A DNA stretch of 16,601 bases from Parcubacteria bacterium DG_74_3 (GTDB lineage: Bacteria > Patescibacteriota > Minisyncoccia > Minisyncoccales > DG-74-3), in assembly GCA_001302985.1 (NCBI GenBank), contig LJNG01000014.1:1-16601 (forward strand). The letters run 5' to 3'. This document shows, in pieces, positions 2,433 through 16,601 of this stretch. How positions within the stretch are numbered: position 1 is the stretch's first letter; each line of letters begins with the position of its first letter. Made by a program: the position numbers and the translations under genes. Under the pieces are notes generated by a model. The model had not been told where the DNA came from and made no database searches. It saw only the letters and a program-made list of their open reading frames with translations.

Positions 2433-2501
2433 AAAATTGAAAAAACTTTACAGCCTGAGCTTGTTTTCTTTTTGTATTAAGTTGCTCCCAATGAATGCCA
2501 C

Positions 2502-3107
2502 TTAATCAGAACAGCACCAAACGCGCTCATAATCAACGCAGTTGGAAACTGTAAAATGATACCACATAGTAGCTCCACCAGTAGAATCCTTAAAAGTGTT
2601 CATCTCTGCTGTTTGTCCGTAATAGACGCTGCTAACGCTCGTCCAGTCCGAACAATCTGAATCTTCTCCACTCAGGCTGCCTGATTTAGTATCAATCCAA
2701 CCCTCTGGTCCTCCTCCAGGACTGGTATCCCTACCCGTTCCTGAGGTTTCTACTCTTCTTCCTCCCATTGCAAACTCTGAGGTATCACATATATGATATC
2801 CCGACTGGCAACAAGCGCCAGGATTATCATCGCAATTATGATTACCCCTAAATGTACTACTAGTAAGATACAGGGTGCCTGCTCCTCCGGCTGCGACAAC
2901 AGCATTGTCTACGTAGTCTTTGGTGACAGCGTCTGAACCAGATGTAGGAGTCCCCAAATTAATGATTTTATTAAGGGCCATATCTAATTGAGTTTCTATT
3001 TTGAGAGCAGCTAAGGCCACTAAACTGACCAAGAATAGAGAAATTAGAACTCCTGAAATTAGGGTTATGGTTTTAATGAGTTTAGTGTGATTCATATTTA
3101 TTTTCAC
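2502..3107 (-). CDS. Secreted or membrane-anchored protein with a tail-fibre-type N-terminal motif and a Cys-rich C-terminal domain
   Basis: It has a TM/signal helix with ALA-A type cleavage context. LDMALNKIINLGTPTSGSDAVTKDYVDNAV matches the NxKIxNLxxPTxxxDAVNKxYVD motif common in phage tail fibres and tailspikes. The C-terminal ~115 aa carry 8 Cys, ending VWCCSD, a pattern reminiscent of endostatin/DUF1554-like lectin folds (from memory, unverified). Confidence 0.6.
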   Translation of the reverse strand: MKINMNHTKLIKTITLISGVLISLFLVSLVALAALKIETQLDMALNKIINLGTPTSGSDAVTKDYVDNAVVAAGGAGTLYLTSSTFRGNHNCDDNPGACCQSGYHICDTSEFAMGGRRVETSGTGRDTSPGGGPEGWIDTKSGSLSGEDSDCSDWTSVSSVYYGQTAEMNTFKDSTGGATMWYHFTVSNCVDYERVWCCSD

Positions 3108-3133
3108 TAAATTAATAATTTTTTTATTACCTT

Positions 3134-3637
3134 TTAGCGAACCACCATTATTCCGGTTTCTCCATGACCTGGTAAATGGCAGAAAAACTCGTATTCTCCT
3201 GGCTCTTCAGGTGCATAAAAAGTTATAGCCCGAATGGGATCATGAGAACCAACACCAATAGCAACCTCGCTTAACACATCATCTCTAAATTTAAAAATAT
3301 GAACTCCCTGGTCCCCATTAATAACTGTCAAAACCACTTTTTCTCCTCGCTGAACTTCGAAAGTCTCGGGACTATATCCTTTTTTAGTCACTGTAAGCTT
3401 AATAGAATCAGCAGGAATTTCGCTTTCTTTAAGTGGGGGCGACTCTATTGGATTTTCAGGATTTTGCCAGTCTTCGGTTGGGGTTTTTTCGAAAGTTATT
3501 TTCTCTTCAGTTCCCCCTAATAATCCTTGAGTTAAATCTTTTTGGCCCTTTTGACCAGGAAACACAACTAAAAGGATTATTAGGCTCACTCCTAACAGTA
3601 CAGCCAAAACAATTAAAATGATTCTTTGTTTCTCCAT
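3134..3637 (-). CDS. Membrane-anchored cupredoxin-domain (type-1 blue copper-like) protein
   Basis: N-terminal TM helix, then a C-terminal ~100 aa with the cupredoxin_1 pattern: FEVQRGEKVVLTVINGDQGVHIF ... GEYEFFCHLPGHGETGIM. This supplies His, Cys, His and Met ligands in canonical order. Confidence 0.65.
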   Translation of the reverse strand: MEKQRIILIVLAVLLGVSLIILLVVFPGQKGQKDLTQGLLGGTEEKITFEKTPTEDWQNPENPIESPPLKESEIPADSIKLTVTKKGYSPETFEVQRGEKVVLTVINGDQGVHIFKFRDDVLSEVAIGVGSHDPIRAITFYAPEEPGEYEFFCHLPGHGETGIMVVR

Positions 3638-3718
3638 ATGTACACGTACAATAAAAGGTTTTTTTATTTGAAAGCCCTATTGTCTTTTTTCTAAACCCAA
3701 AACAATACTTTCTGTCTT

Positions 3719-4132
3719 TTATTCGATCTCTCCTTCTAAATCTTGGGGAGTAGAGGGTATTTGTTGTTGAGGAACAATCTTTCCCTGAGCACGAGCTTCA
3801 ATGTACTCAACTACCGGACTGGTAGGCGCTAACCTTACTATCCAAACCACACTCTCAGAGTTCAGTTTAAGTTTTCCTCTCGGAGCCCAAAAAGCGTCTT
3901 GAAAACGTTCTACGCTGATTGGCGCACCTTGATCTTGACTCACCCTAAGATAGTAGGAGTCTTCTAAAATGTAGCGAGAGCAGCAAACCAGTTTACCAAA
4001 ATAAATATCGCCAGTAGAAAGATAAACAGCATAATAGTTTGACCTATAAAAAAATTTCCAGATAACAAAACCTATTAATACTAATATAAGGAAGAACGTT
4101 GCTGATAATAAGATAATCTTTTTTTTCTCCAT
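3719..4132 (-). CDS. Hypothetical membrane-anchored protein
   Basis: 137-aa ORF with a single N-terminal TM helix (ILLSATFFLILVLIGFVIW) and a YYAVYLSTGDIYFGKL segment. I recognise no family. Confidence 0.5.
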   Translation of the reverse strand: MEKKKIILLSATFFLILVLIGFVIWKFFYRSNYYAVYLSTGDIYFGKLVCCSRYILEDSYYLRVSQDQGAPISVERFQDAFWAPRGKLKLNSESVVWIVRLAPTSPVVEYIEARAQGKIVPQQQIPSTPQDLEGEIE

Positions 4133-4247
4133 ATTTTATAAGCAATTAGGGCTTTTTCGACCTTTAAAGGTGGTGCCCAAAAAGCACTTTTTTAATTGTA
4201 GCATATTTTCGTTTTTATCGCGTTTTATTCTCTTCCAAATAAAAAAT

Positions 4248-4260
4248 GCCTCAAAGGGGC
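4248..4260 (-). terminator. Weak candidate rho-independent terminator downstream of clpP
   Basis: The minus-strand RNA GCCCC-UUU-GAGGC has 4 of 5 pairs, with a C.A mismatch on this strand. It is followed by AUUUUUUAUUU. It is the only hairpin plus U-tract between the clpP stop and the next gene. Confidence 0.3.
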
Positions 4261-4295
4261 GTCTTAACTATTTATATGACTGGTTATATGACTGG

Positions 4296-4883
4296 TTACT
4301 TTTTACTTTTTATTACCTCATCAATGATTCCGTACTCTTTTGCTTCCTGGGCTGAAAGGTAAAAGTCTCGATCAGTATCTTTAGCTACTCTTTCCAAGGC
4401 TTGGCCGGTATGTTTTGCTAAAATCTTGTTAAGCTTGTCTTTGATTTTAACAATTTGTTTTGCGGTAATCTCAATCTCGATTGCTTGACCCGCTACCTTT
4501 CCAGCTACTTGATGAAGTAAAATCTCAGAATTAGGAAGGGCAAATCTCCTTCTCTTGGTACCTGAAGCCAGGATGGTGGCTGCCATTGAGCCTGCCAAGC
4601 CCACACAAACTGTAGAAATAGGACATTGAATATATTGCAAGGTATCGTAAATGGCTAAACCCGCAGTTACCGAACCTCCGGGAGAATTAATATAAAGCTT
4701 AATGTCTTTTTTGGGGTCTTTGGAGGATAAAAATAAAAGTTGAGCAATAATTGAATTGGCTGTAACGTCTGTAATGGGGCCTGCCAAAAGAACAATTCTA
4801 TCTTTCAAGAGCCTAGAGTAAATATCATAGGCTCTTTCGCCGTGTTGAGTTTTTTCAATGACAGTTGGAACTAAATAAGCCAT
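4296..4883 (-). CDS. clpP: ATP-dependent Clp protease proteolytic subunit
   Basis: [46 protein letters not shown], the catalytic Ser context GLAGSMAA, His in LLHQVAG and Asp in [14 protein letters not shown] place the start at ATG 4883 (MAYLVP...). The tracked TTG start at 4910 lies inside the intergenic tandem repeat. Confidence 0.9.
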
Positions 4884-4888
4884 ATTAA

Positions 4889-4980
4889 TTTTGAGCGAAG
4901 CGAGAAACAAGGTTCTGGCGAAGCCAGGTTCTTATTTTGAGCGAAGCGAGAAACAAGGTTCTGGCGAAGCCAGGTTCTTA
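4889..4980. repeat. Perfect 46-bp tandem duplication (2 copies) in the tig-clpP intergenic region
   Basis: ttttgagcgaagcgagaaacaaggttctggcgaagccaggttctta occurs at 4889-4934 and again, identically, at 4935-4980. Each unit carries GCGAAGC twice, 23 bp apart, and a ctggc-gaa-gccag hairpin. A partial gttctta follows at 4982-4988. Confidence 0.95.
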
Positions 4981-4985
4981 TGTTC

Positions 4986-5873
4986 TTATTTTTTAATAAA
5001 ACCCTCTAAAAATTGAAAGGTTTTCTCGTTTATAAGCGCTTCTTTAGTATAATCTTTTAGGCGCTCTGGGTCAAGATTTGTTTCTAAACCAGGATTGGCA
5101 ACTGAAATTTTCTTTATTTCTTCTTCAATTTCTTTTTCTGTCACTGATATGTTTTCTTTTTTACCAATTTCTCTTAAAACCAAAGATTTTTTAATTCTAG
5201 TTTTGGATTCGGGTAAAAAAGAATCTAGAATCTCTTTTTCTGTTTTTTGTAGTTTGGCCAAATAGTCTTCAAAGCTTATTTGAAGAGTTTGAACTACTCC
5301 ACTTTTGAGACTTTGGAGCATTCTTTTTTTCTCTTCCTCTATTAAAATTTCAGGTATATCAACCTTGCTCTCGAGGGCTATTTTTTCTAAGATTTCTCTT
5401 CTCATTCTTTCTTTTTCCCATCTTTCTTTTTCTTGCCTTAATTTTTCTATTTCCTCTTCTGTCACCTTAACTTCTTTTTTCTGAACCCGAGAAGTAAGGC
5501 TTTTGTAATCTGGTAATTTAATTTCGGGTAAAATCCAAATTTTAGCTTTAAATTCAAGGGGGTTATTTGGGGCTAATTTCAAAATTTCAATTTCTGGCTG
5601 AGAAATAATCTTAATTTTATCTGCTAGCTGATTGATGGCCTTAGGATAATTCGTTTGAATAGCCATTTCAGCTGCTTCCTTTAAAATATTTTCTGGGCTC
5701 ACCTCTTTCTCAATGACTTCTTTTGGTGCTTTTCCTTTTCGAAAACCCTTCACTTCCAAGTTTTGGCCCAAGCTCAAGACTGCTTTTTTAACAAAGATTT
5801 GAAACTCTTCTGGTGGAACCTCTATTTTTAACTCAATTTGTGTTTGAGAAATTTTATTAACTGTAGTTCTCAC
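4986..5873 (-). CDS. tig: Trigger factor, short form lacking the FKBP-type PPIase domain
   Basis: The N-terminal ribosome-binding domain carries the signature GFRKGKAP. The sequence then passes directly from the linker (VKVTEEEIEKLRQEKERWEKE) into a Trigger_C-like helical region (KVDIPEILIEEEKKRML...). It is 295 aa, versus about 430 aa for canonical TF. It has a GTG start that overlaps the ppaC TGA by 4 nt. Confidence 0.8.
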   Translation of the reverse strand: MRTTVNKISQTQIELKIEVPPEEFQIFVKKAVLSLGQNLEVKGFRKGKAPKEVIEKEVSPENILKEAAEMAIQTNYPKAINQLADKIKIISQPEIEILKLAPNNPLEFKAKIWILPEIKLPDYKSLTSRVQKKEVKVTEEEIEKLRQEKERWEKERMRREILEKIALESKVDIPEILIEEEKKRMLQSLKSGVVQTLQISFEDYLAKLQKTEKEILDSFLPESKTRIKKSLVLREIGKKENISVTEKEIEEEIKKISVANPGLETNLDPERLKDYTKEALINEKTFQFLEGFIKK

Positions 5874-6823
5874 TTCTTTTCTAAAAATTTAAGTAGTGGG
5901 GGTAAGATTTGTTTTTTTCTGGAAACTACTCCTGGTAAAAAAATTAGGTTTTCTTTTGTTTTTTTCTTAAATATTTTTTCAGCTAACCCTTTTTCTTTTT
6001 CTCCCAGAATAAAAAGAGTGCTGTTTTTTTCCAAAATATCAATTAGGGCGAAAAACAGGAAGTCCGCCTTTCTTTTCTTTTTTAATTTTGCTAAAGCAGA
6101 AAAAATATCTTTTTTTATTTGAAATATCTTTTGGGGAGAAGTTGTTTCCCAAACGCCAATAGCAAAATCTGTTCTTCCGGCCTTAAATTCTTTGTAATCT
6201 GTAGCTACCAGTTTGTCTGGAGAAATACCTGTAATATCAGATTTTACCTCAAACATTTTTTTGGCTAATTTATTTATATTTTCTTTGGAGATTTTTGCTA
6301 AAAACTGAACAATTTTTTTATCTTCTGTGGTGGTGGTGGGAGAGGTGAGCTTTAAGGTATCAGACAAAATGGCAGAGAGAAGCAAACCCGCTTCTTTTTT
6401 CTTTAAAGAGAGATTGTTTTCCAAAAACATTTTTGCCAAAATTGTGCTTGAGCTGCCAATTGGTTCTGCTCGATAAAAAATAGGAGAGACTGTTTTTAAA
6501 CCTCCTAGCTTATGATGGTCTAAAACTCCAACAATGTTTGCTTTTTTAATGCCCGGGGCTGCCTGTTCATAATCTCCGTGGTCTACAAGAAAAACATTTT
6601 TGTCGGAAAGAGATTTTATAATAGGGGGAGCTTTTTGTTTAAAATATTTTAAGACAAATTTTGTTTCTTTATTAAGGGGGCTGGGGCTGGCGACCCTAAT
6701 CTTAAAATTTAAAAAGCCAATAATGGGCTTTTTTATTTTTTGAAGAAATCGAGCAAAAATTAAAGAGGTGACGATTGCGTCAGTATCCGGGGTTTTGTGA
6801 CCAATAATAATTATTTCCTTCAT
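5870..6823 (-). CDS. ppaC: Family II (Mn-dependent, DHH/DHHA2) inorganic pyrophosphatase
   Basis: IGHKTPDTDAIVTS (DHH motif I), VDHGDYEQA, LDHHKLGG (the DHH motif), ILSDTLKLTSPTTT (characteristic of family II PPases), and a C-terminal DHHA2-like region. The length of 317 aa is typical. Confidence 0.8.
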   Translation of the reverse strand: MKEIIIIGHKTPDTDAIVTSLIFARFLQKIKKPIIGFLNFKIRVASPSPLNKETKFVLKYFKQKAPPIIKSLSDKNVFLVDHGDYEQAAPGIKKANIVGVLDHHKLGGLKTVSPIFYRAEPIGSSSTILAKMFLENNLSLKKKEAGLLLSAILSDTLKLTSPTTTTEDKKIVQFLAKISKENINKLAKKMFEVKSDITGISPDKLVATDYKEFKAGRTDFAIGVWETTSPQKIFQIKKDIFSALAKLKKKRKADFLFFALIDILEKNSTLFILGEKEKGLAEKIFKKKTKENLIFLPGVVSRKKQILPPLLKFLEKK

Positions 6824-8049
6824 TTTTTTTGTTTGGTTTTTGATTTTTTTGCTGGAGGTTGCTTCTTTTTTGTTTTTTCTTTCTTCCCCACTTCTTCCTC
6901 TTTGATTTCTTCTTCCTCTCCTTTTGCTTCTGTACTTCTAACATCAATTTTCCAGCCGGTTAGTTTAGCTGCCAGCCTAACATTCTGTCCATCTTTGCCA
7001 ATAGCTAAAGATAACTGTTCTTCGGGAACAATACAGAGAGCCTTGTTTTTCGGTAAAATTTTAACCTCCAATACTTTAGCTGGAGAAAGGGCATTGGCAA
7101 TAAATTTCTCTGGGTCTTCTGACCATTCAATAATATCAATTTTCTCTCCACCCAATTCATTAATAACCGCCATCACTCGAGTTCCCCTTTGACCAACAGC
7201 TGCTCCAATGGGGTCGATTCCCTCGACATCAGAAAAAACTGCAATTTTTGTCCGGGATCCTGCTTCTCGAGCAATTGCTTTTATCTGAACCTGACCTGAA
7301 GAAATTTCCGGCACTTCTAGCTCAAAAAGTTTAGAAATCAATTTGGGATAGGCTCTGGATAAAAAGATTCTTGGTCCTTTAGGCGTTTCTTCTACTTTTA
7401 AAACATAAAGTTTCAATCTTTGGCCCGGTCGGTAAAACTCTCCAGGAACCTGCTCTTCTCTTGGTAAAATTGCCAGGGTTTTACCGATATTAAAGTAGAT
7501 ATTTCTACCTTCAATCCTTTGTAAAATTCCAGAAATAATTTCTCCCTCCTTTCTTTTATATTCCCCGAAAATGCTTTCTCTTTCTGCTTCTTTTAATCTT
7601 TGCATTATTACCTGTTTGGCAGTTTGGGCAGCAATTCGACCATAATCTTTCTCAGTCTTAAGGGGAATTTTTAATTCTTCCCCGACCTGAATTTTTTTAT
7701 TAATCTTTCTGGCTTCTTTGATTAGAATGTGTTTTTCGGGATTAAAACGGATCTTTTTTTCTTCCTCTTTTTCTTCTCCTTCTTCTTGAGTTCTTTTTTC
7801 TTTTAGCGCCAGAAGTTCTTCTTCAGAGTAAATCATGCTTTCATCCACCGCCTCCTGAATCTGCCAAAATTTAACCTCGCCCGAATTTAAATCGAGTTCG
7901 GCTCGGATTATTTGTCCCCTTTTTCCGTATTCTTTTTTATAGGCAGCAGCTATTGCTTGCTCAATGGTCTCTAAAACTTTTTCTTGGGGGATTCCCTTTT
8001 CTTCAGCAATTTGAGCAATAGCTGAGCTAAATGTCTTTAAATCCTCCAT
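6820..8049 (-). CDS. nusA: Transcription termination/antitermination factor NusA (bacterial type)
   Basis: NusA_N (IAQIAEEKGIPQEKVLETIEQAIAAAYKK), an S1 domain (GEIISGILQRIEGRNIYFNIG) and two KH domains (RTKIAVFSDVEGIDPIGAAVGQRGTRV; LSLAIGKDGQNVRLAAKLTGWKIDV). It has a Lys/Glu-rich C-terminal tail and an acidic insertion near residue 85-105. Its stop overlaps the ppaC ATG (ATGA). Confidence 0.9.
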   Translation of the reverse strand: MEDLKTFSSAIAQIAEEKGIPQEKVLETIEQAIAAAYKKEYGKRGQIIRAELDLNSGEVKFWQIQEAVDESMIYSEEELLALKEKRTQEEGEEKEEEKKIRFNPEKHILIKEARKINKKIQVGEELKIPLKTEKDYGRIAAQTAKQVIMQRLKEAERESIFGEYKRKEGEIISGILQRIEGRNIYFNIGKTLAILPREEQVPGEFYRPGQRLKLYVLKVEETPKGPRIFLSRAYPKLISKLFELEVPEISSGQVQIKAIAREAGSRTKIAVFSDVEGIDPIGAAVGQRGTRVMAVINELGGEKIDIIEWSEDPEKFIANALSPAKVLEVKILPKNKALCIVPEEQLSLAIGKDGQNVRLAAKLTGWKIDVRSTEAKGEEEEIKEEEVGKKEKTKKKQPPAKKSKTKQKK

Positions 8050-8069
8050 AGTGTTTTCTTAAATAAAAT

Positions 8070-8089
8070 GTCCGTTGTTGAAAGCGGAC
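8070..8089 (-). terminator. Candidate hairpin terminator/attenuator between plsY-like gene 1 and nusA
   Basis: gtccg-N10-cggac (5-bp stem). On the minus strand it is followed by AUUUUAUUU, and the plus-strand side is also T-rich. Confidence 0.35.
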
Positions 8090-8110
8090 TAATTTTATTT
8101 TAATTGAGAT

Positions 8111-8776
8111 TTAACTTTCTGTCAAGCGACTAAATATTTTTTTTATTCTTAACTCTAAAGCGGGCTTATCATCATCAAACAATAAGCGATTTCTAATTAA
8201 AGAACTTTTCTCTTGAGACTTTTTAATTTCTTCGATGGGGCTTAATCTTTTAATAAAAATCGGAGCCAAAGAAATAATTGAAAAAAGACCGACTGTTTCC
8301 CATTGGTTAAAAGAAGCAGAAAGGATTATAGCTAATACCAGAAACAAAATTGTTCCGATAGAGAGGTTCCAGATAAGACCCAAAAGAACAAAAGGAATCA
8401 AAGAATAAGCTAAAATTCTGGGCGAGAGTGCTAAAAAAGCACCAATAAAAGTTCCGATTCCTCTTCCACCAGCTCCTTTTAAAAAGCACGACCAATTATG
8501 ACCGGTCACAGCTGCTACCCCGGCCATTGCCTGAATTTCGGGTTTTAAACCTAGATTTTGAACTAATTTAACAGCCAAAAAACCCTTACCCACATCTAAA
8601 ACTCCGGTTAAAACCCCTTGCCAGATTCCAATATTTTTAAAAACATTTGAGCCTGAAGTTTTCCGCCAGCCTATTTCTAAGATATTTTTTCGGGTCGAAA
8701 GCTTAGTAACTATATAGCCCGAAGGGAAAGAACCCAAAATATAAGATATTATTAAAAATAAAATCGATTTAATCAT
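8111..8776 (-). CDS. plsY: PlsY-family (acyl-phosphate:glycerol-3-phosphate acyltransferase-like) membrane protein, divergent paralogue 1
   Basis: The N-terminus YILGSFPSGYIVTK matches the PlsY start. It also has LDVGKGFLAV and GHNWSCFLKGAGGRGIGTFIGAF (PlsY GHxFPxFLxFKGGKGVAT box) and is polytopic. Motif 1 reads TSGSNVFKNIG instead of GSGNxGATN. Confidence 0.7.
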   Translation of the reverse strand: MIKSILFLIISYILGSFPSGYIVTKLSTRKNILEIGWRKTSGSNVFKNIGIWQGVLTGVLDVGKGFLAVKLVQNLGLKPEIQAMAGVAAVTGHNWSCFLKGAGGRGIGTFIGAFLALSPRILAYSLIPFVLLGLIWNLSIGTILFLVLAIILSASFNQWETVGLFSIISLAPIFIKRLSPIEEIKKSQEKSSLIRNRLLFDDDKPALELRIKKIFSRLTES

Positions 8777-8864
8777 AAAATAGGTGGTCTGCGATTTTCG
8801 ATTGTTTAGTTGATTATTGTCTCGAGCAAGGAGTAGACATTATCAGCAAGCAAACCAATGTTTA

Positions 8865-9653
8865 TCATTGTTTTTTATATTTTTTTACTTTTTCTTTTCC
8901 TCTTTCTTTCATTATTTTCACAAAGTCAGCTACTAATTTTTTAACATCTTTTATCTTTTCAGCAGCTGTGCCCACCTGAATACAATCTGCCCCTGCCTCT
9001 ATTATTTTCCCTGCTTGCTCTGGCGTTTTTACACCTCCACCAACTACGTAGGGGATGTCAATAGCTGCTCTAACAGTAGCCACCATTTCAGTAGGAACGG
9101 GGGCAAAGGCATTAGAGCCTGCATCTGTAAAAATCAGACGTTTTCCGGAAAATTGTCCGGCAAGAGCCAGGGCAGCTGCAATTTTAGGTCTGTTCCTTGG
9201 AACCAAATTAGCATCTCCCACCCAACCTGCTGTGCCTCCGGGTTCCACTAAAATATAGCCCATGGGTAGGGGTTCTACTCCTAGTTTTTTAATTAAAGGT
9301 GCTGAAAGTGTTTGGGCTTGAGAAATCCAGTAAGGATTTCTTGAGTTAAGTAGGGTCATAAAGAAGATGGCATCAGCAAAGGGAGAAATAGTGGCAATAT
9401 TACCAGGAAACAAAGTAATGGGAAGCCTTACCTTAGCTTTAATTCCTTTGATAACCTTGTCCAAAAGCTCACCCTGAGCTTCGGTACTACCCCCAACTGC
9501 AATAATGTCAGCTCCACCAAGTTGGGCAGCATAAGCTGTTTCAATGGCTGCTTTAATTGAAGGATGGTCGCAAGGGTCAATCACAATTGACAAAAGAGCG
9601 CCTTCTTTCTTAATTTTTTCCCTAATATAAAGTTCAACTTTTCCTGTTTTCAT
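8865..9653 (-). CDS. Geranylgeranylglyceryl phosphate synthase (GGGPS / PcrB family TIM-barrel prenyltransferase)
   Basis: IDPCD, IIAVGGST, LFPGN, LNSRNPYWI, GYILVEPGGTAG, FTDAGSNA and VVGGGVKTPEQA occur in the order and spacing of the GGGPS/PcrB family. The long form with the NPYW segment resembles group II enzymes. The start lies 2 nt after the GGPP synthase stop. Confidence 0.85.
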   Translation of the reverse strand: MKTGKVELYIREKIKKEGALLSIVIDPCDHPSIKAAIETAYAAQLGGADIIAVGGSTEAQGELLDKVIKGIKAKVRLPITLFPGNIATISPFADAIFFMTLLNSRNPYWISQAQTLSAPLIKKLGVEPLPMGYILVEPGGTAGWVGDANLVPRNRPKIAAALALAGQFSGKRLIFTDAGSNAFAPVPTEMVATVRAAIDIPYVVGGGVKTPEQAGKIIEAGADCIQVGTAAEKIKDVKKLVADFVKIMKERGKEKVKKYKKQ

Positions 9654-9655
9654 AT

Positions 9656-10738
9656 TTATACTTTTCTTTCAATTAAATAATTAACAAATTCTCTTAACCT
9701 TTCTTTGGCTGGAGAAGCGGTAAGTAGCCCATCTGCTTCTTGCCAGGCTTCTTGCATAATTTTTTGAGCTACTTTTTGGGCATACTCAACACTACCATAT
9801 TTTTGGATTATTTCTATTGCCTCTCTTTTCTCTTCGGAATCATCAGTATGTTTATTTAATATCTCAACTAATCTCTTTTTATCATCGGGGGTGGCTTGCT
9901 TTAAAGTATGAATAACCATTAAGGTTCTTTTTCCTTCTTTTATGTCATTGCCAAAGACCTTGCCAAACTTTTCTCGTTCTTCCCCTGTTAGGGTTATGTC
10001 TAAAATATCGTCTTGAATTTGAAAGCCGACTCCCATGGCTTCTGCCACTTTACCTGCAGCTTCTGCCAATTCCTTGCTGGCCCCAGAAAGTATTACTGCT
10101 AATTTAGCTGACATTCGAGACAGACATCCTGTTTTGTAAGCACACATTTGGAGATATTCTTCTTCACTTATTTCTTGGGCCTTGCCTTTGTGCCAGTAAA
10201 TATCTGTTCCCTGACCAAAACCTAAGTTTATCATTTCTTGAACATAGGCTTCATAGGCTCTAATTAGAATCTCTGTCTTGAACTTATCTTTATTTTTGAT
10301 GAGGGCTAAAAGAGGGAAAAAGTACATAAAGTTGCCGGCATTTAAAGCAATGTCGATTCCAAAAATTTTGTGTAAAACAGGTTTTCCTCTTCTCAGCTCT
10401 CCTTCGTCTTCGATGTCGTCTATAATAATGGTTCCATTGTGAATTAACTCTGGCACAACCACTATATCTCTCGCTTTTTCAAGATTCCCACCAACAGCTT
10501 CGGTGATTAATAGGAATAGGATTGGTCTCCATCTTTTCCCGCCCCGACCAATAAAATCCCAGATGGGTTTAATTAAAGCTCTGTCTGCTGCTTCAAAACT
10601 ATAAGCATACCTGGGTTTTCCAAAAGTAAACTCCAGCCATTCTTTAGTTGCTTCCTTGGGAAGATATTTTTCAATAATCTCATCAACTTCGGGCTTTAAT
10701 TTTTCTAAATATTCTTCAAATTTTTCTTTTTTTATCAT
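9656..10738 (-). CDS. Polyprenyl diphosphate synthase, probable geranylgeranyl diphosphate (GGPP) synthase
   Basis: The first Asp-rich motif is in LIHNGTIIIDDIEDEGELRRGKP and the second in GFQIQDDILD. The HNxxxxIDDIEDxxxLRRGxP block closely resembles the type III (eukaryote/archaeal-like) GGPPS signature. Chain length is inferred, not proven. Confidence 0.8.
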   Translation of the reverse strand: MIKKEKFEEYLEKLKPEVDEIIEKYLPKEATKEWLEFTFGKPRYAYSFEAADRALIKPIWDFIGRGGKRWRPILFLLITEAVGGNLEKARDIVVVPELIHNGTIIIDDIEDEGELRRGKPVLHKIFGIDIALNAGNFMYFFPLLALIKNKDKFKTEILIRAYEAYVQEMINLGFGQGTDIYWHKGKAQEISEEEYLQMCAYKTGCLSRMSAKLAVILSGASKELAEAAGKVAEAMGVGFQIQDDILDITLTGEEREKFGKVFGNDIKEGKRTLMVIHTLKQATPDDKKRLVEILNKHTDDSEEKREAIEIIQKYGSVEYAQKVAQKIMQEAWQEADGLLTASPAKERLREFVNYLIERKV

Positions 10739-10767
10739 TTTGGGTGTGAAAACTGGTTTTACTACTA

Positions 10768-10797
10768 TTAATGTTGACTTCTTATTTCAATTATAAT
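10768..10797 (+). promoter_or_regulatory. Candidate sigma70-type promoter for the DGGGP synthase gene. Its -10 overlaps a minus-strand TATAAT that could serve the GGPP synthase operon.
   Basis: A perfect TATAAT lies at 10792-10797, with a weak -35 TTAATG 18 nt upstream. A better TTGACT at 10774-10779 is only 12 nt away. The reverse strand reads TATAAT at 10795-10790. The assignment rests on sequence alone. Confidence 0.3.
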
Positions 10798-10826
10798 ATA
10801 TTGGGTGCGTTTGTGTTTATAGCTTG

Positions 10827-10892
10827 ACCCAGCACCTTATGCTACAATAACAATACCTAATAAGGGTTTTATGCGCAATCTCGGTGCTGGGT
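10827..10892. promoter_or_regulatory. 10-bp perfect inverted repeat (acccagcacc ... ggtgctgggt) enclosing 46 nt, in the divergent intergenic region
   Basis: 10827-10836 is the exact reverse complement of 10883-10892, and on the plus strand it is followed by tttattgtaattt. It is either a leader RNA stem-loop in the 5' UTR of the DGGGP synthase gene or a protein operator. Confidence 0.4.
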
Positions 10893-10935
10893 TTATTGTA
10901 ATTTCGGGCGTTTTATTCAATTATACAATAATAAC

Positions 10936-11736
10936 ATGAATCCTTTTTTTGAAATAATTCGTCCCATTACTTCCTTGGTTGCGGCTCTCGGCGCTGTTGT
11001 CGGGGCTATAATTTCAGGGGTCTCTGACCCTATTTTGCTTTTTTATGCCTTCCTGGCTGTTTTTACTATTACCGGGGCTGGAATGATTCTTAATGATTAT
11101 TATGATTTAGAGATTGATAAAATTAATGCTCCCCAGAGACCCTTACCCTCGGGCCAAATATTCCCTAGAGATGCTTTATCTTATAGTTCCTGGTTATTCA
11201 TTGTGAGCATTTTTTTTGCGGCCCTCATCAATAGTTATTGTCTGGCTTTAGCTCTCGTCAATGCTGTCCTCGAATATTTATATTCTAAGCACCTTAAACG
11301 AACTTTCTTGTTGGGTAATATAATAGTCAGTTGGTTTACGGCTTCTACTTTTATTTTCGGAGGCCTCATCACTTTAGATTTCAGCATTGTAAAGATTATT
11401 GCCCCCCTAGCTTTCCTGGCTAATATGGGAAGAGAAATTTTCAAGACAATTGAAGATATAAAAGGAGATAAAAAATTGAAACTAGACACTCTCCCAATAG
11501 CTGTGGGAATTGATTCGGCCAGAGAGATAGCCCAAGGATTTATTGCTTCGGCCATCTTATTATCTCCTCTTCCCTATTTTTCCGGGCTTCTTAATTCTAT
11601 TTATCTAAGGGTTGTTTCAATTAGCAATGCTCTATTTTTATATTCCCTCTCCCAAACACCAACTCAAATTAAGAGAATTACTAAGCTGGCCATGCTCATT
11701 GTTCTTTTAGCGTTTTTACTTGGTAGGTCTTTTTAA
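10936..11736 (+). CDS. UbiA-family prenyltransferase, probable digeranylgeranylglyceryl phosphate (DGGGP) synthase
   Basis: LNDYYDLEIDKINAPQRPLPSGQI (NDxxDxxxD followed by RPxPSG, as in archaeal DGGGPS), a second Asp motif in IEDIKGDKK, about 8 TM segments and a short 266-aa length. It lies between the GGGPS/GGPPS and GGR genes. It is the only plus-strand CDS in the window. Confidence 0.75.
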   Translation: MNPFFEIIRPITSLVAALGAVVGAIISGVSDPILLFYAFLAVFTITGAGMILNDYYDLEIDKINAPQRPLPSGQIFPRDALSYSSWLFIVSIFFAALINSYCLALALVNAVLEYLYSKHLKRTFLLGNIIVSWFTASTFIFGGLITLDFSIVKIIAPLAFLANMGREIFKTIEDIKGDKKLKLDTLPIAVGIDSAREIAQGFIASAILLSPLPYFSGLLNSIYLRVVSISNALFLYSLSQTPTQIKRITKLAMLIVLLAFLLGRSF

Positions 11737-11760
11737 TCTTTTAAAAGGTCCCGCTTTTTC

Positions 11761-11785
11761 AACGCTTTCAAAGAGCGTTTTTTTT
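11761..11785 (+). terminator. Rho-independent terminator after the DGGGP synthase gene, at the convergent junction with the reductase gene
   Basis: aacgct-ttcaaag-agcgtt (6-bp stem, 7-nt loop) followed by a run of T's (8 consecutive including the 2 stem bases, 11778-11785). It abuts the TAA of the minus-strand reductase gene. Confidence 0.6.
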
Positions 11786-12905
11786 AACCGAAACTAGCCG
11801 TGTTCTTTTCTAAAATCAGAAAAAGCTTAGCAAGTCGGAAAAAATTTTTTCTTAATTGATCCTTAGATAGTAACCCGAAAACTCCTGGAAAAGTTTTAAG
11901 ATAAAAAACATCTTTATTTTCCAAAATTTCAGCTAATTGGTTTAAAACGGAATTGGGAAAAGAATATAATATTTTTTGAGCTACTAATAAGTCTGTGCTA
12001 AAGGGAGGCATTGATTTAATTTTTCTTTCGTAAAGATGGGGGGTGTTAGAGAGAATACATTCAGCAGCCACTCTTCCGGAAATCATGGCATTTATCATTC
12101 CTCCTCCCAAAACTGGATCAACGAGGCTACCGGCATCGCCTGTTAAGAAAGCATTGTCTTTAAAAAGAGTCATTTTTGCTCCTCCCCAGGATATAGTCCC
12201 GCTTATATTTTTTAAGAGCTTATAATTTCCATAATTTGGCTTGACCTGATTTTCCATAAAGTATTGGAATCTTTCAATAAGATTGCCCTTGCCGCCCAAT
12301 CCAATATTGGCGGTTTTTTTAGATTTGGGAAATATCCACACATAACCATCAGGAAACTTTTCTTTGTCAAAGTATATTTGAATCACCGAGTCATCGATCT
12401 CTCTTTCTAATTCGACTAAATATTCAAAAGTAGATAAAATTTCCGGTTTTTCTCCAAAAACTCTTCTTCTGACAATCGAGAGGGGTCCGTCAGCCCCGAT
12501 TAAATATCGGGATTGAAAGGCTTTTCCTTCATTTGTTGTTACCTTCCAGATATCGCCCCTCCTTTCTAAATTAACCACCCGTGTTTCTAGTTGAATTTTA
12601 GCTTGAACTTTTTTTGCCAAACACTTCTCAAAACCAATTCTATCTATTACAAAACCTATTTTTTCTCCTTTAATCGTAATTGGTTTTCCTGATGGAACAA
12701 ATACTTTTACCGTGTTAATAACGGTTGAAATCCAAGCAGGATTAGGAGAAATCCCTTCTTTTTCTAGGGATTCTTTGCTTATGCCTTCGGCACATTGAAC
12801 GGGTTTTCCAATCTCTTTTTTCTGGTCCAAAATCAAACAATTTTTTAAGTGTCTTCCGGCAGATAAGCCTGCGGGTCCTGCTCCGATAATAATAGTTTCT
12901 AACAT
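11784..12905 (-). CDS. Geranylgeranyl reductase family flavoprotein (digeranylgeranylglycerophospholipid reductase-like)
   Basis: FAD-binding IIIGAGPAGLSAG, a catalytic-Cys region VQCAEGIS (compare xCGEGxS in archaeal GGR), GADGPLSIVRR and LTGDAGSLVDPVLGGGMINAMISG. The length of 373 aa fits. Confidence 0.8.
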   Translation of the reverse strand: MLETIIIGAGPAGLSAGRHLKNCLILDQKKEIGKPVQCAEGISKESLEKEGISPNPAWISTVINTVKVFVPSGKPITIKGEKIGFVIDRIGFEKCLAKKVQAKIQLETRVVNLERRGDIWKVTTNEGKAFQSRYLIGADGPLSIVRRRVFGEKPEILSTFEYLVELEREIDDSVIQIYFDKEKFPDGYVWIFPKSKKTANIGLGGKGNLIERFQYFMENQVKPNYGNYKLLKNISGTISWGGAKMTLFKDNAFLTGDAGSLVDPVLGGGMINAMISGRVAAECILSNTPHLYERKIKSMPPFSTDLLVAQKILYSFPNSVLNQLAEILENKDVFYLKTFPGVFGLLSKDQLRKNFFRLAKLFLILEKNTASFG

Positions 12906-12914
12906 AAAACAAAT

Positions 12915-13559
12915 TTAGGATTGGTTAATTGTTTTCTTTTTCCAATACCACTTGGGTCTTTCTCCATAAAGAGCCGAGGGAAAGTGGGGCCACTGTTTTA
13001 CGAAAATTGGAAGGGTCATTAACAAACAAGCTAAAAAATATTTTTTGTCCAAATAAAAACCTATAAGGGGGAGAAAAATATTTCCTATAAATTGACCGAA
13101 AAAGAAAATCTGGGTAGTCAAAATAAACAAAATAGCTATCCCTGCCCAGGGTAAAAGCAACCACTGAAAATTTAAGACGGCTAACACCCCTATTAAAGAG
13201 GCCTGGGCTTTTCCCCCCGAAAAGCGTCCTTCTTTCAGTTTAAAGTAGATGGAAAAACAATGACCCAATATTACGCCAAAGGCAGCAAGACTGGTTGCCC
13301 ATAAAATATTGTAATTTAAAAAAGAAAGCTTCTGAGGAAGAAAAACGGCTAGTGCTCCCTTTCCGATATCAACCATCGCTGTCAAAATAAAGAGAAGTGG
13401 TTTGCCTGTAGTTCGCATTACATTAAGAGCACCGACATTTTTGGATTCTTCTTTTCTAATGTCTTTACCGGTGAATTTTTTAGTTACCAAGAACGCGGTG
13501 GGGAAAGAACCCAAAAGATAGGCGATTACGAAGAATGTGATTGGATATAAGAAAGTCAT
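12915..13559 (-). CDS. plsY: PlsY-family acyltransferase-like membrane protein, divergent paralogue 2
   Basis: AYLLGSFPTAFLVTKKFTGKDIRKEESKNVGALNVMRTTG aligns to the PlsY N-terminus and motif 1 (GSGNxGATNVxRxxG), with Gly->Glu, Gly->Lys and Thr->Leu substitutions. It also has VDIGKGALAV. GHCFSIYFKLKEGRFSGGKAQAS matches the PlsY His/GGKG box with a 6-aa insertion. Confidence 0.7.
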   Translation of the reverse strand: MTFLYPITFFVIAYLLGSFPTAFLVTKKFTGKDIRKEESKNVGALNVMRTTGKPLLFILTAMVDIGKGALAVFLPQKLSFLNYNILWATSLAAFGVILGHCFSIYFKLKEGRFSGGKAQASLIGVLAVLNFQWLLLPWAGIAILFILTTQIFFFGQFIGNIFLPLIGFYLDKKYFLACLLMTLPIFVKQWPHFPSALYGERPKWYWKKKTINQS

Positions 13560-13581
13560 TCGTGTCTAATAGATAAATTTT

Positions 13582-15363
13582 TTATTCAATTGGTATCCAG
13601 GCAGCAATTAAGCTTCCCGGACCAATGTGAGCCCCGACCACCGGACTCACCAAATTAATAAAAGAAATTTCGGCTTTAATGCTTTTTAATTTGTCTTTTA
13701 ATTTTTTTGCTTCTGGGAGATTATTGGCGTGCGAAATGATTACCCGGATTCTTTTACCCCTTTCTCTTTCTTTTTTACTTTCTTTAGCTATTTTTTTAAA
13801 GAGGGCATCGGCCATATCTCTAGCCCAAACCACCCCCCCTTTAATCAGTACTCCATTTTTAATTTTTATTAGAGGATGAAGACGGATTTTCTTCATTCTT
13901 CTTATCCATTCAGCCTGTCTTTTGGTTACTCTTCCTCCAGCCTCTATCCATCTTGGCTCCTCGAAAAGAAGATAGAGATTGATTTTGCTCCTGAGCTTTT
14001 TTAACTTATTAATAACTTCGACTATTTCTCTTTGTTCTTGAATTAATTCGATGGCTCGCAAAACCAAAAGAGCCTGGGAGGCAGAAGCGTGCCAAGAATC
14101 AAAAACAAAAATCCGTTTCGGCTCCTGGACCTCTGCTTCAGCCTGTTTGGCAGAATTATAACAACCAGAGAGTTTAGCGGTAATGGTAATACACAAAACC
14201 TTTTCAAACTTGTGAAGCTGTTTTTCAAAAGCCACAAGATAGTCCTTGGGGGTTGCCTGAGAGGTCTTGGGGAAACTTTTTATGCCCCGCCTTTTTGCTT
14301 CAATCATTTTTTGATAAATATTTTCCCCGGGTATTTTTTTTCCTTCTGGCCAATTAAGGACAGTTGGCACTATTTCAATTTGATAACGTTCAGTAATTTT
14401 GGGTAAGAGTCCAGCAACATCATCGGTGACAATTCCAATTGATACCTGCCTGACCGAAGGCTCTCCTCCCACCTCTTTGGCCATGTCTTCAATTCTTAAA
14501 CTTTCAAGCTTGCCGGATTCCCTTGCTATTTTTTCAACCTCATCCACCAAGTCGGTATGAATATGAACCTTGGTTTTGTCGCCAATTTTGACTACTTCGA
14601 TGCTGTTTCCTAAAATCGCTAATTTTTTCTCAAGTAATTCTTTGTCTAACTTTTGATTTTTTACCAAAAAGACAACTTCATAGCGATGGGAAAGGGTTTG
14701 AATAAATCTTCTAACTTGTTCTGAAGGTCGTTCCTCGACTCTCTCTTTTCTTTTTTCGCCTTCTAGGGCTTCGAGATGAGCCTCGAGAATCATTAAGAAG
14801 GCCAAGCCTCCGGCATCAACCACATTGGCTTTTCTAAAAATTTCCATTTTTTCTCGGGTAGCCAAGAGGGCTTCATTAGCTTTTTCTGTGGCTTTTTTAA
14901 AAAGTTGAATGATATTCCTTTCCTGCCCCGCTTCTTTTTGAAGGGTTTGAGCTGCTGCGTCAATTACATCCAAAATTGTTCCTTCTATGGGATTTTGAAT
15001 TGATTCTCTAGCTTTCTCTGCTCCTTTTTTAAAAGCAACAGAGAGTTTCTTGGCGTTTACCGGGTTTTTATTGAGCAGCGGTAAAAAACCAGCTAAAAAG
15101 CCGGTGTAAATTACACCAGCATTTCCCTGAGCCGCAATAAGAGCCCCATCTAAGGTAGCTTCTGAGATTTCCCGTAAGTCTTGAAATTCTTTTACCTCAA
15201 TCGCTTCTTTAATTCCCAACAGGGTCTTGGCCATATTGCTTCCTGTGTCTTGGTCGGGTACTGGAAAAACATTAATTTTGTTAATCTCTTCTTTATTTCT
15301 CTCAACCCTTTCCCAGGCAAGAAGCATCATTTTTTTGAGTTCCTTATGGGTCAAATACTCCAT
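13582..15363 (-). CDS. DAK2 (FakA-like kinase N-domain) plus FakA-like middle domain plus full DegV (FakB-like fatty-acid-binding) domain fusion. It is a putative single-chain fatty acid kinase.
   Basis: N-terminus: INVFPVPDQDTGSNM (the DhaL/FakA phosphate-Mg site) and GNAGVI. Middle: GNSIEVVKIGDKTKVHIHT and LRIEDM, like the YloV/FakA central domain. From about residue 307 the sequence is a canonical DegV domain: IGIVTDDVAGLLP, TSQATPKDY, ITITAKLSGCYNSAKQA, VFDSWHASASQALLV, ISHANN and SPVVGAHIGPGS. Confidence 0.8.
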   Translation of the reverse strand: MEYLTHKELKKMMLLAWERVERNKEEINKINVFPVPDQDTGSNMAKTLLGIKEAIEVKEFQDLREISEATLDGALIAAQGNAGVIYTGFLAGFLPLLNKNPVNAKKLSVAFKKGAEKARESIQNPIEGTILDVIDAAAQTLQKEAGQERNIIQLFKKATEKANEALLATREKMEIFRKANVVDAGGLAFLMILEAHLEALEGEKRKERVEERPSEQVRRFIQTLSHRYEVVFLVKNQKLDKELLEKKLAILGNSIEVVKIGDKTKVHIHTDLVDEVEKIARESGKLESLRIEDMAKEVGGEPSVRQVSIGIVTDDVAGLLPKITERYQIEIVPTVLNWPEGKKIPGENIYQKMIEAKRRGIKSFPKTSQATPKDYLVAFEKQLHKFEKVLCITITAKLSGCYNSAKQAEAEVQEPKRIFVFDSWHASASQALLVLRAIELIQEQREIVEVINKLKKLRSKINLYLLFEEPRWIEAGGRVTKRQAEWIRRMKKIRLHPLIKIKNGVLIKGGVVWARDMADALFKKIAKESKKERERGKRIRVIISHANNLPEAKKLKDKLKSIKAEISFINLVSPVVGAHIGPGSLIAAWIPIE

Positions 15364-15376
15364 ATTGTAAGCCCGA

Positions 15377-16030
15377 TTAACGAAGCTTCTTTTCTAGCTC
15401 TTTAAGAATCTTAGCTGCTATTTCTTTTCCTCCGAGACCAAAAGCAATACCTATGGTAAGAGAGATGGCAATAACAAAACCAATAAAGACGGTCAGAATT
15501 AAAGTGGGTGCTATTTGGAGTTGGTACAAAATAGCCAGGGTAGCCAAACTCCAAATTATCCAGCGTATCACTCTTCCAAAAAGCCGCGAGTAGGTTATCT
15601 TTTCTTTTTCCAAAACAGCCACCATAATTTTCTGAGAAAAATCAGCCAAAAAAACAGCGATGATAAAGATTAGGGATGCAATAAAAATATTCTGGAAATA
15701 ACTTATAACTTTTCCTAAAAACTGACTGAACTGCGGAAGGCCCAGAATTTCTAAAGAAATCATCAGAAAAATAATTATAAAGAACCATTTTACTAATTCT
15801 CCAAAAAATCCCGGAGCATCCAAGCTAAGATCAAGCTTGGCTAGAGTCTCTGCCCAACCCAATCTTTTAAGAGTTTGGTTAAGATTGGTTTTGTTGAGAA
15901 ATCGAACAGCAGTGTTTCCCATCCATTTGGCCACAAAAAAACCGGCGACAAAAACTAAAATTGCCCACAGAAGTTGGGGTAATTTCTCAATAAGGCTCAC
16001 TAGAAATAATTGAAGAAACCCTGTTTCCAT
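15377..16030 (-). CDS. Polytopic membrane protein of the conserved TM-helix repeat type (resembles the N-terminal region of MscS-like channels)
   Basis: Two repeats of a TM pair. The first has the pattern LPQLLWAILVFVAGFFVAKWMGNTAVRFLNK...LKRLG, followed by LVKWFFIIIFLMISLEILGL. This resembles the TM_helix family as I recall it. No soluble MscS beta domain is present. Confidence 0.5.
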   Translation of the reverse strand: METGFLQLFLVSLIEKLPQLLWAILVFVAGFFVAKWMGNTAVRFLNKTNLNQTLKRLGWAETLAKLDLSLDAPGFFGELVKWFFIIIFLMISLEILGLPQFSQFLGKVISYFQNIFIASLIFIIAVFLADFSQKIMVAVLEKEKITYSRLFGRVIRWIIWSLATLAILYQLQIAPTLILTVFIGFVIAISLTIGIAFGLGGKEIAAKILKELEKKLR

Positions 16031-16046
16031 GCAAATTTATTGTAAC

Positions 16047-16601
16047 TTACCATTGATTTTGAGACAAGCCCAATCTAAATCCTATCTGGGTAGCGCTTAT
16101 GTGCAAAATGAAGGTTAAAATTAAAAGGGTTATCCACACTCCCATATTTATTGCATAAAATGGGCTTAAAAAAAGAGCTGAGCCAATTACATAATTTATC
16201 TGGTCAAAGGGCAGAAACCTTGTCCCTGGTTTTAGTCCCAAGCGTCGTTTAATAAAAGCGAAAAATAAATCGCCGCAAAGGGCTCCTCCCGACATTAAAA
16301 CACCAAAGAAAAAAATATTAATTATTTGATAGTTTAAAAAACTAATTTCTCTGATAAAAAGAAGTCTATTAAAAAGTTGTCTCTGGAAAAGAGCTGTCAA
16401 GAGACCAGCAGTTAATCCTAAAATAATCCCCCGCCAGGTTTTGTGGTTTCCTAAAATAGGGGAGCCCTGAAGCTTCCTTCCGAAATCAAGGGGCTTGTCC
16501 AAGCATTTAAAAAAACCCCTACTTGCCATTAAAGAGGGTGTCATATTTGTAAAGTAAGCTGGCAAGAAAAAATAAAAAGATGATAAAATCCATTTAAGCA
16601 T
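16047..16601 (-). CDS. carS: CDP-archaeol synthase (CarS / DUF46 family CTP:2,3-di-O-geranylgeranyl-sn-glyceryl-phosphate cytidylyltransferase)
   Basis: FLPAYFTNMTPSL, PLDFGRKLQGSPILGNHKTWRGII (CarS PxDxG...G..KTxRG block) and LPFDQINYVIGSALF (the DQxxF/Y acidic motif), with about 5 TM segments. At 184 aa it is the typical CarS size. Its ATG is the last three bases of the window, so the true start could lie further upstream. Confidence 0.75.
   Translation of the reverse strand: MLKWILSSFYFFLPAYFTNMTPSLMASRGFFKCLDKPLDFGRKLQGSPILGNHKTWRGIILGLTAGLLTALFQRQLFNRLLFIREISFLNYQIINIFFFGVLMSGGALCGDLFFAFIKRRLGLKPGTRFLPFDQINYVIGSALFLSPFYAINMGVWITLLILTFILHISATQIGFRLGLSQNQW

Follow-up and report, generated by a model that had tools for sequence, protein, structure and literature searches.

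A predicted single-chain fatty acid kinase encoded beside plsY in a Parcubacteria genome

The closest described relatives of the locus reported here are the fatty acid kinases of Firmicutes, which consist of two chains, the kinase FakA and the fatty-acid-binding protein FakB (Staphylococcus aureus, Streptococcus suis; PDB 7RM7, 6W6B, 7W7H, 5UTO; PMC9136124, PMC10848957). Free-standing FakB is a soluble protein of ~280–300 aa that shuttles between the membrane and FakA. We analysed a stretch of 16,601 nucleotides from Parcubacteria bacterium DG_74_3 (GenBank contig LJNG01000014.1, positions 1 to 16,601; hereafter 'the window'). It forms contig 19 of the genome, which totals 544 kb and is 97% complete. 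In this window, a gene at 13582..15363 on the minus strand combines the kinase part and a fused FakB-type (DegV) part in one chain. We consider it probable that this one chain works as a fatty acid kinase and supplies acyltransferases of the PlsY family.

Several residues of the known systems serve as reference points. S. aureus FakA binds ADP and two Mg ions through N32, D38, D40, T41, N82 and D185, requires H282 and H284 for activity, and depends on Cys240, since C240A cuts activity ~200-fold (PMC9136124); the roles of the HxH pair are described in PMC9136124 and PMC10848957. On the FakB side, Arg173 (numbering of PMC9136124) is essential for phosphotransfer. PlsY enzymes use acyl-phosphate, and Aquifex PlsY (aaPlsY) holds its substrates with a phosphate clamp (S35, R45, K104, N180) and 2-OH contacts (S142, H177) (PMC5700162).

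The fusion architecture itself is already catalogued in databases. Proteins in which the DhaL domain comes first, called 'circularly permuted', are reportedly placed with the DegV family in a review by Erni and colleagues from 2006. One sentence of a 2021 preprint, citing Erni et al. 2006, notes the architecture in Chloroflexi and Firmicutes.

Predicted kinase and fatty-acid-binding domains in one reading frame

The gene, its predicted domains and its key residues are listed below with their window coordinates.

13582..15363, minus strand: predicted single-chain fatty acid kinase (FakA_N + FakA_M + DegV/FakB), 593 aa plus stop
14776..15264, minus strand: Dak2/DhaL-type nucleotide-binding domain, residues 34–196 (Pfam, 109.7 bits against a cut-off of 27; the genome-wide match falls at these coordinates)
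15235..15273, minus strand: ATP/Mg motif NVFPVPDQDTGSN, residues 31–43, invariant in 67 aligned fusions
14470..14685, minus strand: FakA middle (dimerisation/metal-site) domain, residues 227–298 (PF21645 FakA-like_M, 51.9 bits against a cut-off of 24.9)
14557..14565, minus strand: His267-Ile-His269, the HxH pair of FakA_M, equivalent to S. aureus H282/H284 and invariant in 67/67 fusions
14677..14679, minus strand: codon of Glu229, equivalent to FakA Cys240 in S. aureus and Cys244 in S. suis
13600..14442, minus strand: complete DegV/FakB-type domain, predicted to bind fatty acid, residues 308–588 (Pfam, TIGR00762, Foldseek)

The open reading frame (ORF) comprises 593 codons followed by TAA, with zero internal stops. 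A preliminary description of the locus had proposed FakA kinase and middle domains fused to a DegV domain in one polypeptide, and every motif that it cited is present in the ORF: NVFPVPDQDTGSN as listed, HRYEVVF at residues 226–232, KVHIHT at 265–270, TSQATP at 367–372, LSGCYNSA at 398–405, DSWHAS at 422–427 and GAHIGPG at 577–583.

A word-indexed search returned >3,700 relatives. The best 120 of these (64–78% identity, plus the window's own copy) carry the same three Pfam domains in ~595 residues; where named, close relatives are each a 'DegV family protein' of Nealsonbacteria, Paceibacterales or Patescibacteria. When representatives of clusters built at 50% identity were searched exhaustively with HMMER, 774 matched at E<=1e-30; among the 150 best, 129 combine the N-terminal and DegV parts in a single chain, with identities as low as 26%.

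These relatives bear on whether the single ORF could be an artefact, produced by a missed frameshift or stop or by chimeric assembly of a truncated fakA and fakB. The order fakA then fakB is common in two-component systems, and no supporting evidence for an artefact was found. The reading frame is uninterrupted, >100 of the close homologues (64–78% identity) from independent assemblies share the three Pfam domains at similar length, and both the 129 cluster representatives and complete genomes from cultured bacteria contain the fusion. Furthermore, the junction lies exactly at the expected start of FakA_C, whereas a read-through of FakA and FakB would be ~850 aa. The comparative data thus rule out a frameshift or chimera origin, which we regard as next to impossible, and the proposal of one uninterrupted polypeptide stands.

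The start codon is ambiguous, with M1 or M11/M12 (window 15330–15363, minus strand) as candidates. The ATG at 15363, 13 nt after the stop of the upstream gene, has no Shine-Dalgarno-like sequence; an AAGGA does stand in front of Met11/Met12, and one copy in the databases, P0002, has 582 residues. The M1 start is nevertheless favoured, because residues 5–12 align with the N-terminus of S. suis FakA and are predicted to form part of a helix at 6–22 (pLDDT ~97).

An AlphaFold2 model of the whole protein, built on 67 homologues, has a mean pLDDT of 93 with low confidence only in the linkers at ~202–227 and 300–306. Its N-terminal structural domain (~1–201) matches S. aureus FakA_N in Foldseek with a template modelling (TM) score of 0.95 and a root-mean-square deviation of 1.1 A. 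Residues N31, D37, D39, T40, N81 and D183 correspond to the S. aureus Mg/ATP ligands N32, D38, D40, T41, N82 and D185, all of which are kept. Among the 67 aligned fusions (25–52% identity to the window protein), N31, D37, D39, T40, N43, N81, D183, H267, H269 and S399 are invariant.

The middle domain is modelled as a beta-alpha-beta fold (pLDDT ~95), and its Cys and His positions were mapped from Pfam, the family alignment and published motifs. A phmmer search with this domain alone against PDB sequences gave chance matches only, e.g. NifH at E ~0.5. The preliminary description had correctly noted that the Cys is missing here; to this we can add that its replacement by Glu is clade-wide. Across the 67 fusions, column 229 holds Cys 46 times, Glu 21 times and nothing else. 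In a tree of 86 fusions, the Glu type forms a single clade (29 rows, Shimodaira–Hasegawa-like support 98) that requires one change, and its sister is a Cys-type clade, also from Patescibacteria.

Glutamate, like cysteine, is able to ligate metal, and it allows no thiol chemistry. For this reason the Glu type would fit better with the zinc-site or structural role described by Shi et al. (PMC10848957) than with a nucleophilic 'catalytic triad' (PMC9136124). In S. suis FakA, His226 is the fourth zinc ligand; no conserved counterpart of it was found in the family alignment, and the column of window-protein H226 holds Y/F/N/H.

Downstream of the middle domain, FakA_C (PF13684/FakA-like_C) has no match in the protein at E<=0.01 and none anywhere in the genome. 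The NCBIfam YloV profile is matched at positions 1–298 of 530 only (255.4 bits against a cut-off of 396), and NF038248, the NCBIfam FakA equivalog, scores 134.6 bits against a cut-off of 975. By these profiles, the window protein falls outside the FakA equivalog, having no FakA_C, no Cys and scores far under the cut-offs.

In place of FakA_C, the chain continues into a genuine DegV domain, as the preliminary description had held, rather than a YloV/FakA C-domain; Pfam, NCBIfam and Foldseek agree on this. Pfam DegV (PF02645) scores 159 bits against a cut-off of 27 over profile positions 1–276 of 280, and TIGR00762 scores 178.8 bits against 99.7. The domain is modelled with pLDDT >90 and aligns in Foldseek with fatty-acid-loaded FakB/DegV crystal structures at TM 0.77–0.87, normalised to target, over ~290–300 alignment columns (5UTO, 6ALW, 1MGP, 2DT8 and 4X9X, with FakB1, TM841 and T. 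thermophilus DegV among them). The fatty-acid and phosphotransfer residues T367, S368, S399, R478 and H579 are all kept. Besides the invariant S399, R478 is conserved in 66/67 fusions, S368 in 62/67, T367 in 59/67 and H579 in 57/67. In a pairwise alignment with S. aureus FakB1, R478 falls on the FakB arginine (Arg173 of PMC9136124) and H579 on the FakB histidine. Thus the fused domain has all the features known to be required of a functional FakB. It does not have the free-standing form of FakB, being covalently placed behind FakA_N and FakA_M.

Linkage to plsY and the surrounding lipid operon

The genome carries three PlsY paralogues. Together with the other genes of the operon, they are located as follows.

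12915..13559, minus strand: PlsY paralogue 2 (PlsY-2), Pfam 118 bits, 22 nt downstream of the kinase gene
8111..8776, minus strand: PlsY paralogue 1 (PlsY-1), at the far end of the operon, acceptor pocket rebuilt
L105:1462-2052, minus strand: contig-1 PlsY, near canonical
16047..16601, minus strand: CarS-like CDP-archaeol synthase homologue, the only CTP_transf_1-like gene in the genome
15377..16030, minus strand: membrane protein of 217 aa containing two 'MscS conserved TM helix' repeats, 13 nt upstream of the kinase gene
11784-12905, minus strand: geranylgeranyl reductase (GGR), separated from PlsY-2 by a 9-nt spacer
10936-11736, plus strand: UbiA-type prenyltransferase
9656-10738: geranylgeranyl diphosphate (GGPP) synthase
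8865-9653: PcrB/geranylgeranylglyceryl-phosphate synthase (GGGPS)

The distance of 22 nt reported earlier between the kinase stop codon and the ATG of the neighbouring plsY paralogue is exact. The pairing recurs elsewhere: in other genomes, 19 of 63 fused loci have a same-strand plsY no more than 300 nt away and 2 more have one within 2.5 kb, counts that are lower bounds because many of the 63 loci end at contig ends. The linked loci belong to Pseudomonadota, Bacteroidota, Fidelibacterota, Spirochaetota, Bipolaricaulota and Patescibacteria, with Lysobacter, Pseudoxanthomonas, Fidelibacterota, Cytophagia, Spirochaetota and Acetothermia as named groups. The plsY genes beside the fused kinases of Lysobacter, Pseudoxanthomonas, Fidelibacterota, Cytophagia and Acetothermia are fully canonical.

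Linkage extends to covalent fusion. Pfam identifies an N-terminal PlsY followed by Dak2, FakA_M and DegV in one chain in P0147 (868 aa; L102:3873-6479, with a standalone DegV gene directly upstream) and P0163 (838 aa), the two covered by the Pfam scan among five extended representatives; the other three, P0150, P0175 and P0205, have an N-terminal extension of ~240–270 aa. P0147, P0150, P0163 and P0175 form one subclade within the Glu-type clade. Because PlsY is fused to Dak2-M-DegV in a single polypeptide, these triple fusions are Rosetta-stone evidence, at the level of sequence, that a PlsY-family enzyme uses the kinase product. Their PlsY domain is of the PlsY-1 type, not of the type of the adjacent PlsY-2.

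The PlsY paralogues of the window depart from aaPlsY; this assignment, like those of the contig-1, fused and neighbouring PlsY proteins above, comes from alignments through divergent regions and is a lead. PlsY-2 keeps the equivalents of S35, R45 and K104 with a rebuilt motif 3. In PlsY-1 these three clamp positions are occupied by W, K and R, and motif 3 is not recognisable. The preliminary description had proposed a compact module leading from fatty acid through acyl-phosphate to PlsY. The genetic coupling is borne out; acylation of glycerol-3-phosphate (G3P) by the adjacent PlsY-2 is less certain, given the rebuilt motif 3 and the presence of three paralogues.

Two Cys-type fusion loci of the candidate phyla radiation (CPR; L005:3268-4520 and L006:227-1472) have two tandem plsY genes after the fused kinase gene. 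One of each pair is canonical (GSG..R / GGKG or GGKA / HRQNI) and the second is a distinct variant (HGTGNVGTMNTHR / KHAPRIK or AHLPRMK). Duplication of PlsY beside the kinase therefore recurs in separate CPR lineages.

What the genome encodes around this step was assessed by whole-genome family searches, which found no match for PlsX, a PlsC-type acyltransferase, ketoacyl synthase or acyl carrier protein (ACP). The absence of ketoacyl-synthase and ACP matches agrees with the earlier statement that the organism has no type II fatty acid synthesis (FASII). The sole AMP-forming ligase is an acetate-CoA ligase (861 bits; cut-off 657). With no match for FASII, ACP, PlsX, PlsC or a long-chain acyl-CoA ligase, the fused kinase would therefore be the only recognisable activator of long-chain fatty acids in the genome and their only recognisable route into lipid synthesis. 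One PlsY paralogue might perform the second acylation, as no PlsC was found. It is also conceivable, although we think it rather unlikely, that the kinase provides the only activated acyl donor and that PlsY-1 and PlsY-2 pass the acyl group to acceptors other than G3P. Candidate acceptors would be lysophosphatidate, with a PlsY paralogue as an acyl-phosphate-dependent PlsC substitute, or a geranylgeranylglyceryl-phosphate intermediate, which, if true, would give hybrid ester/ether lipids in a bacterium.

For the polar backbone, no match to the iron-containing alcohol dehydrogenase family of glycerol-1-phosphate dehydrogenases (PF13685) was found in the genome, and GpsA has a sub-threshold match only. 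A 360-aa ApbA/PanE-like Rossmann reductase (L105:2065-3147, minus strand) is encoded directly upstream of the contig-1 plsY. In other genomes, gpsA is often located directly upstream of plsY.

The kinase gene does lie inside an isoprenoid-lipid operon, as had been described, flanked by the CarS-like gene on one side and by plsY and GGR on the other; no terminator-like sites were found in the short spacers of the operon. The 217-aa membrane protein gene is always found between the CarS-like and fused kinase genes in 8 related loci (L013, L014, L016–L021), and its product could be a membrane partner of the kinase.

This setting raises the alternative that the DegV ligand is an isoprenoid-derived acid or alcohol, phosphorylated for the ether-lipid pathway. 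Dak2-type kinases can phosphorylate hydroxyls, as dihydroxyacetone kinase does. The UbiA-type prenyltransferase, GGPP synthase and PcrB/GGGPS share the cluster, and the order of CarS, transmembrane protein and kinase is kept in the 8 related loci. Against these points, the carboxylate-binding T/S/S/H residues and the Arg are the FakB set. Across the family, plsY is the most strongly and widely linked gene, also in its canonical form at loci of phyla with no ether-lipid genes there and as PlsY fusions, and the substrate of PlsY enzymes is acyl-phosphate (PMC5700162). We consider an isoprenoid ligand very unlikely, and a fatty acid remains our preferred substrate.

Distribution of the fusion and role of the fused DegV domain

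The fusion is found well outside the Patescibacteria. It is annotated as a 'DAK2 domain-containing protein' in Trichococcus flocculiformis (RefSeq WP_434351116.1), and full-length matches were obtained in Pseudoxanthomonas sp. Root630, Lysobacter spp. and Vagococcus salmoninarum. Uncultured lineages carrying it belong to Gemmatimonadota, Fidelibacterota, Bacteroidota, Spirochaetota, Thermodesulfobacteriota, Acidobacteriota, Thermotogota, Actinomycetota and Bipolaricaulota. Within Patescibacteria, its distribution is patchy: it occurs in 4/300 genomes of an even sample of the phylum, in 2/300 of an even sample of the window's class, in 5/5 other genomes of the window's family and in 7/35 other families of the order. 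The suggestion of a Dak2+DegV architecture that could be surveyed in databases thus proved right as to its existence; it is not confined to CPR but widespread across phyla, and this distribution rules out a CPR-specific invention.

On a tree of the N-terminal and middle domains, 2 state changes between fused and canonical FakA are needed, 1 of them forced by well-supported branches. Because so few changes are required, the fused form is, as judged from this tree, an old lineage and not a set of recent accidents; a recent, recurrent gene fusion is ruled out on the same grounds.

The same genome also holds a DegV protein of its own, and some relatives have a fused DegV domain that has degenerated.

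L001:1492-2376 (contig C15, same genome), minus strand: standalone DegV paralogue, 294 aa
L019:1477-3174, L020:850-2544, L021:1480-3141: degenerate fusions of genus g455 in the window's family (representatives P0124, P0128; 554–568 aa)

The standalone DegV shares 45% identity with the fused domain; it retains the T, S, S and R residues and has Ile where the carboxylate-binding His is expected. Convergent to its gene is one for a CDP-alcohol phosphatidyltransferase (L001:846-1430, plus strand), whose best match is archaetidylinositol-phosphate synthase at 122 bits, under the cut-off of 180. In a DegV-domain tree, the standalone DegVs of the order group with the order's fused domains (19 rows, support 96), and so are, as far as this tree indicates, lineage-specific paralogues of the fused domain. 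In relatives, as many as three standalone DegV genes accompany the fusion gene. In g455, the fused DegV domain has lost ~35–40 residues, including PKTSQ, along with the equivalents of S399/G400, R478 and H579; its Pfam score is 36–58 bits, and standalone DegV genes are close by. This looks like decay of a fused FakB domain toward a FakA_C-like docking domain.

Such observations speak for an alternative in which the fused DegV would be a mere docking or scaffold domain, equivalent to FakA_C, with the 294-aa standalone DegV carrying the fatty acid. A standalone candidate with T, S, S and R exists, relatives have several, the g455 domain is without its ligand motifs, and FakA_C is itself DegV-like in fold (PMC10848957). 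In the window protein, however, all five ligand and phosphotransfer residues are intact within a 159-bit match spanning the whole DegV profile, and the standalone protein is the one with Ile in place of the carboxylate-binding His. Moreover, the residues are kept in fusions of many phyla, and many of these loci show no DegV gene in the fetched flanks. Because both modes may coexist, only a 'docking only' version truly competes with fatty acid carriage by the fused domain, and we judge it very unlikely for the window protein. A separate possibility, which we think rather unlikely, is that FakA_C is a decayed DegV, in which case the fused form would be the ancestral Fak design and g455 would be replaying that step.

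Proposed mechanism and comparison with known systems

In the mechanism we favour, the N-terminal Dak2 domain would bind ATP and two Mg ions, and the middle domain would contribute a conserved Glu/His/His site and, by analogy, a dimer interface. A short flexible linker (300–306) would tether the complete DegV domain where ordinary FakA has its FakB-docking domain. The tethered DegV would take up free fatty acid and present the carboxylate, with Arg478 above it, to the gamma-phosphate; the acyl-phosphate would then leave and be consumed by membrane PlsY-family acyltransferases. The covalent tether would substitute for the affinity normally given by FakA_C. S. aureus FakA_NL, which has no FakA_C, still phosphorylates FakB-bound fatty acid with FakB at 10 uM (PMC9136124). 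Since FakA_NL is active at high FakB, FakA_C would give affinity and not chemistry, and a tether could replace it. The analysis directly establishes the domain make-up, fold, conserved residues, gene linkage and gene content; fatty-acid binding, kinase activity, middle-domain dimerisation, transfer in cis or across protomers and the acyl acceptor are what we infer.

We also predicted a complex of residues 1–300 with residues 305–593, ATP and 2 Mg. The median score was 0.41, compared to 0.05 for the best control. In calibration, the mark is reached by 58/80 solved complexes and 2/110 mismatched pairs, and at scores of 0.60 or under by 7/80 solved complexes together with both mismatches. Between runs, at least 76% of contacts are shared, with partner pLDDT of at least 87, and memory of the FakA–FakB2 structure 7W7H may explain the pass. 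The predicted complex weakly backs an association of the kinase half with the DegV half.

Several observations weigh against a single-chain kinase feeding PlsY. The AlphaFold2 pTM of 0.62 describes well-defined domains whose mutual arrangement is uncertain. The middle domain has Glu229 in place of the FakA Cys, and motif 3 of the adjacent PlsY-2 is non-canonical. Because the genome retains a standalone DegV, another protein could share or even dominate fatty acid carriage, and the g455 fusions show that a fused DegV domain stripped of its ligand-binding motifs can take another role. Finally, no biochemical characterisation of any Dak2-FakA_M-DegV fusion was found in the literature searched.

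CPR/Patescibacteria do not synthesise fatty acids, and the way in which they make their membranes is a long-discussed problem. Nealsonbacteria have been described with PlsY and without PlsX, the source of acyl-phosphate being left open (Probst et al., bioRxiv 10.1101/465690). A single-chain Fak next to plsY probably explains the source in this bacterium; no paper tying the fused enzyme to this gap was found in the literature searched. More generally, it is a concrete and directly testable candidate for the acyl-phosphate source in CPR that have neither PlsX nor FASII. If the kinase proves active with no FakA_C, this would favour the idea that FakA_C merely raises the local FakB concentration, and the clade-wide Glu in place of the 'catalytic' Cys is a natural experiment on Fak catalysis. 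FakA/B-PlsY cascades are already used in synthetic-cell lipid synthesis (PMC13400652), which the compact one-chain design, with or without PlsY, could serve.

Compared to FakA and FakB of Firmicutes, the window protein shares the Dak2 domain with identical Mg/ATP ligands, the middle domain with its HxH pair, the DegV fold with its carboxylate-binding residues and the phosphotransfer Arg, and a product expected to feed PlsY. It differs in having a DegV domain, predicted to be ligand-competent, at the place of FakA_C (PF13684) and Glu for Cys, and its host has no PlsX match for acyl transfer to ACP.

The fusions of Trichococcus flocculiformis, Lysobacter, Pseudoxanthomonas sp. Root630 and Vagococcus salmoninarum have the same three domains, length and conserved residues, and are often beside plsY. 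These proteins from other phyla are 25–30% identical to the window protein, keep the Cys and have a fully canonical neighbouring PlsY; their hosts mostly have larger genomes and several are cultured. The kinase and DegV parts of the CPR fusions of PlsY, Dak2, FakA_M and DegV belong to the same Glu-type clade as the window protein, whose acyltransferases are separate genes; both would follow one path, from fatty acid through acyl-phosphate to a PlsY-family enzyme.

Dihydroxyacetone kinases (DhaK/DhaL, and the single-chain DhaK of Citrobacter freundii) likewise join an EDD-fold substrate domain to a DhaL/Dak2 domain, fused in some cases (PMC10848957). In the window protein, by contrast, the nucleotide domain comes first (a permuted order), a middle domain is added, and phosphorylation is proposed to occur on the carboxylate of a lipid, not on the hydroxyl of a triose. 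Taken together, these comparisons place the window protein as an uncharacterised form of the Fak system that belongs to a large family spanning many phyla.

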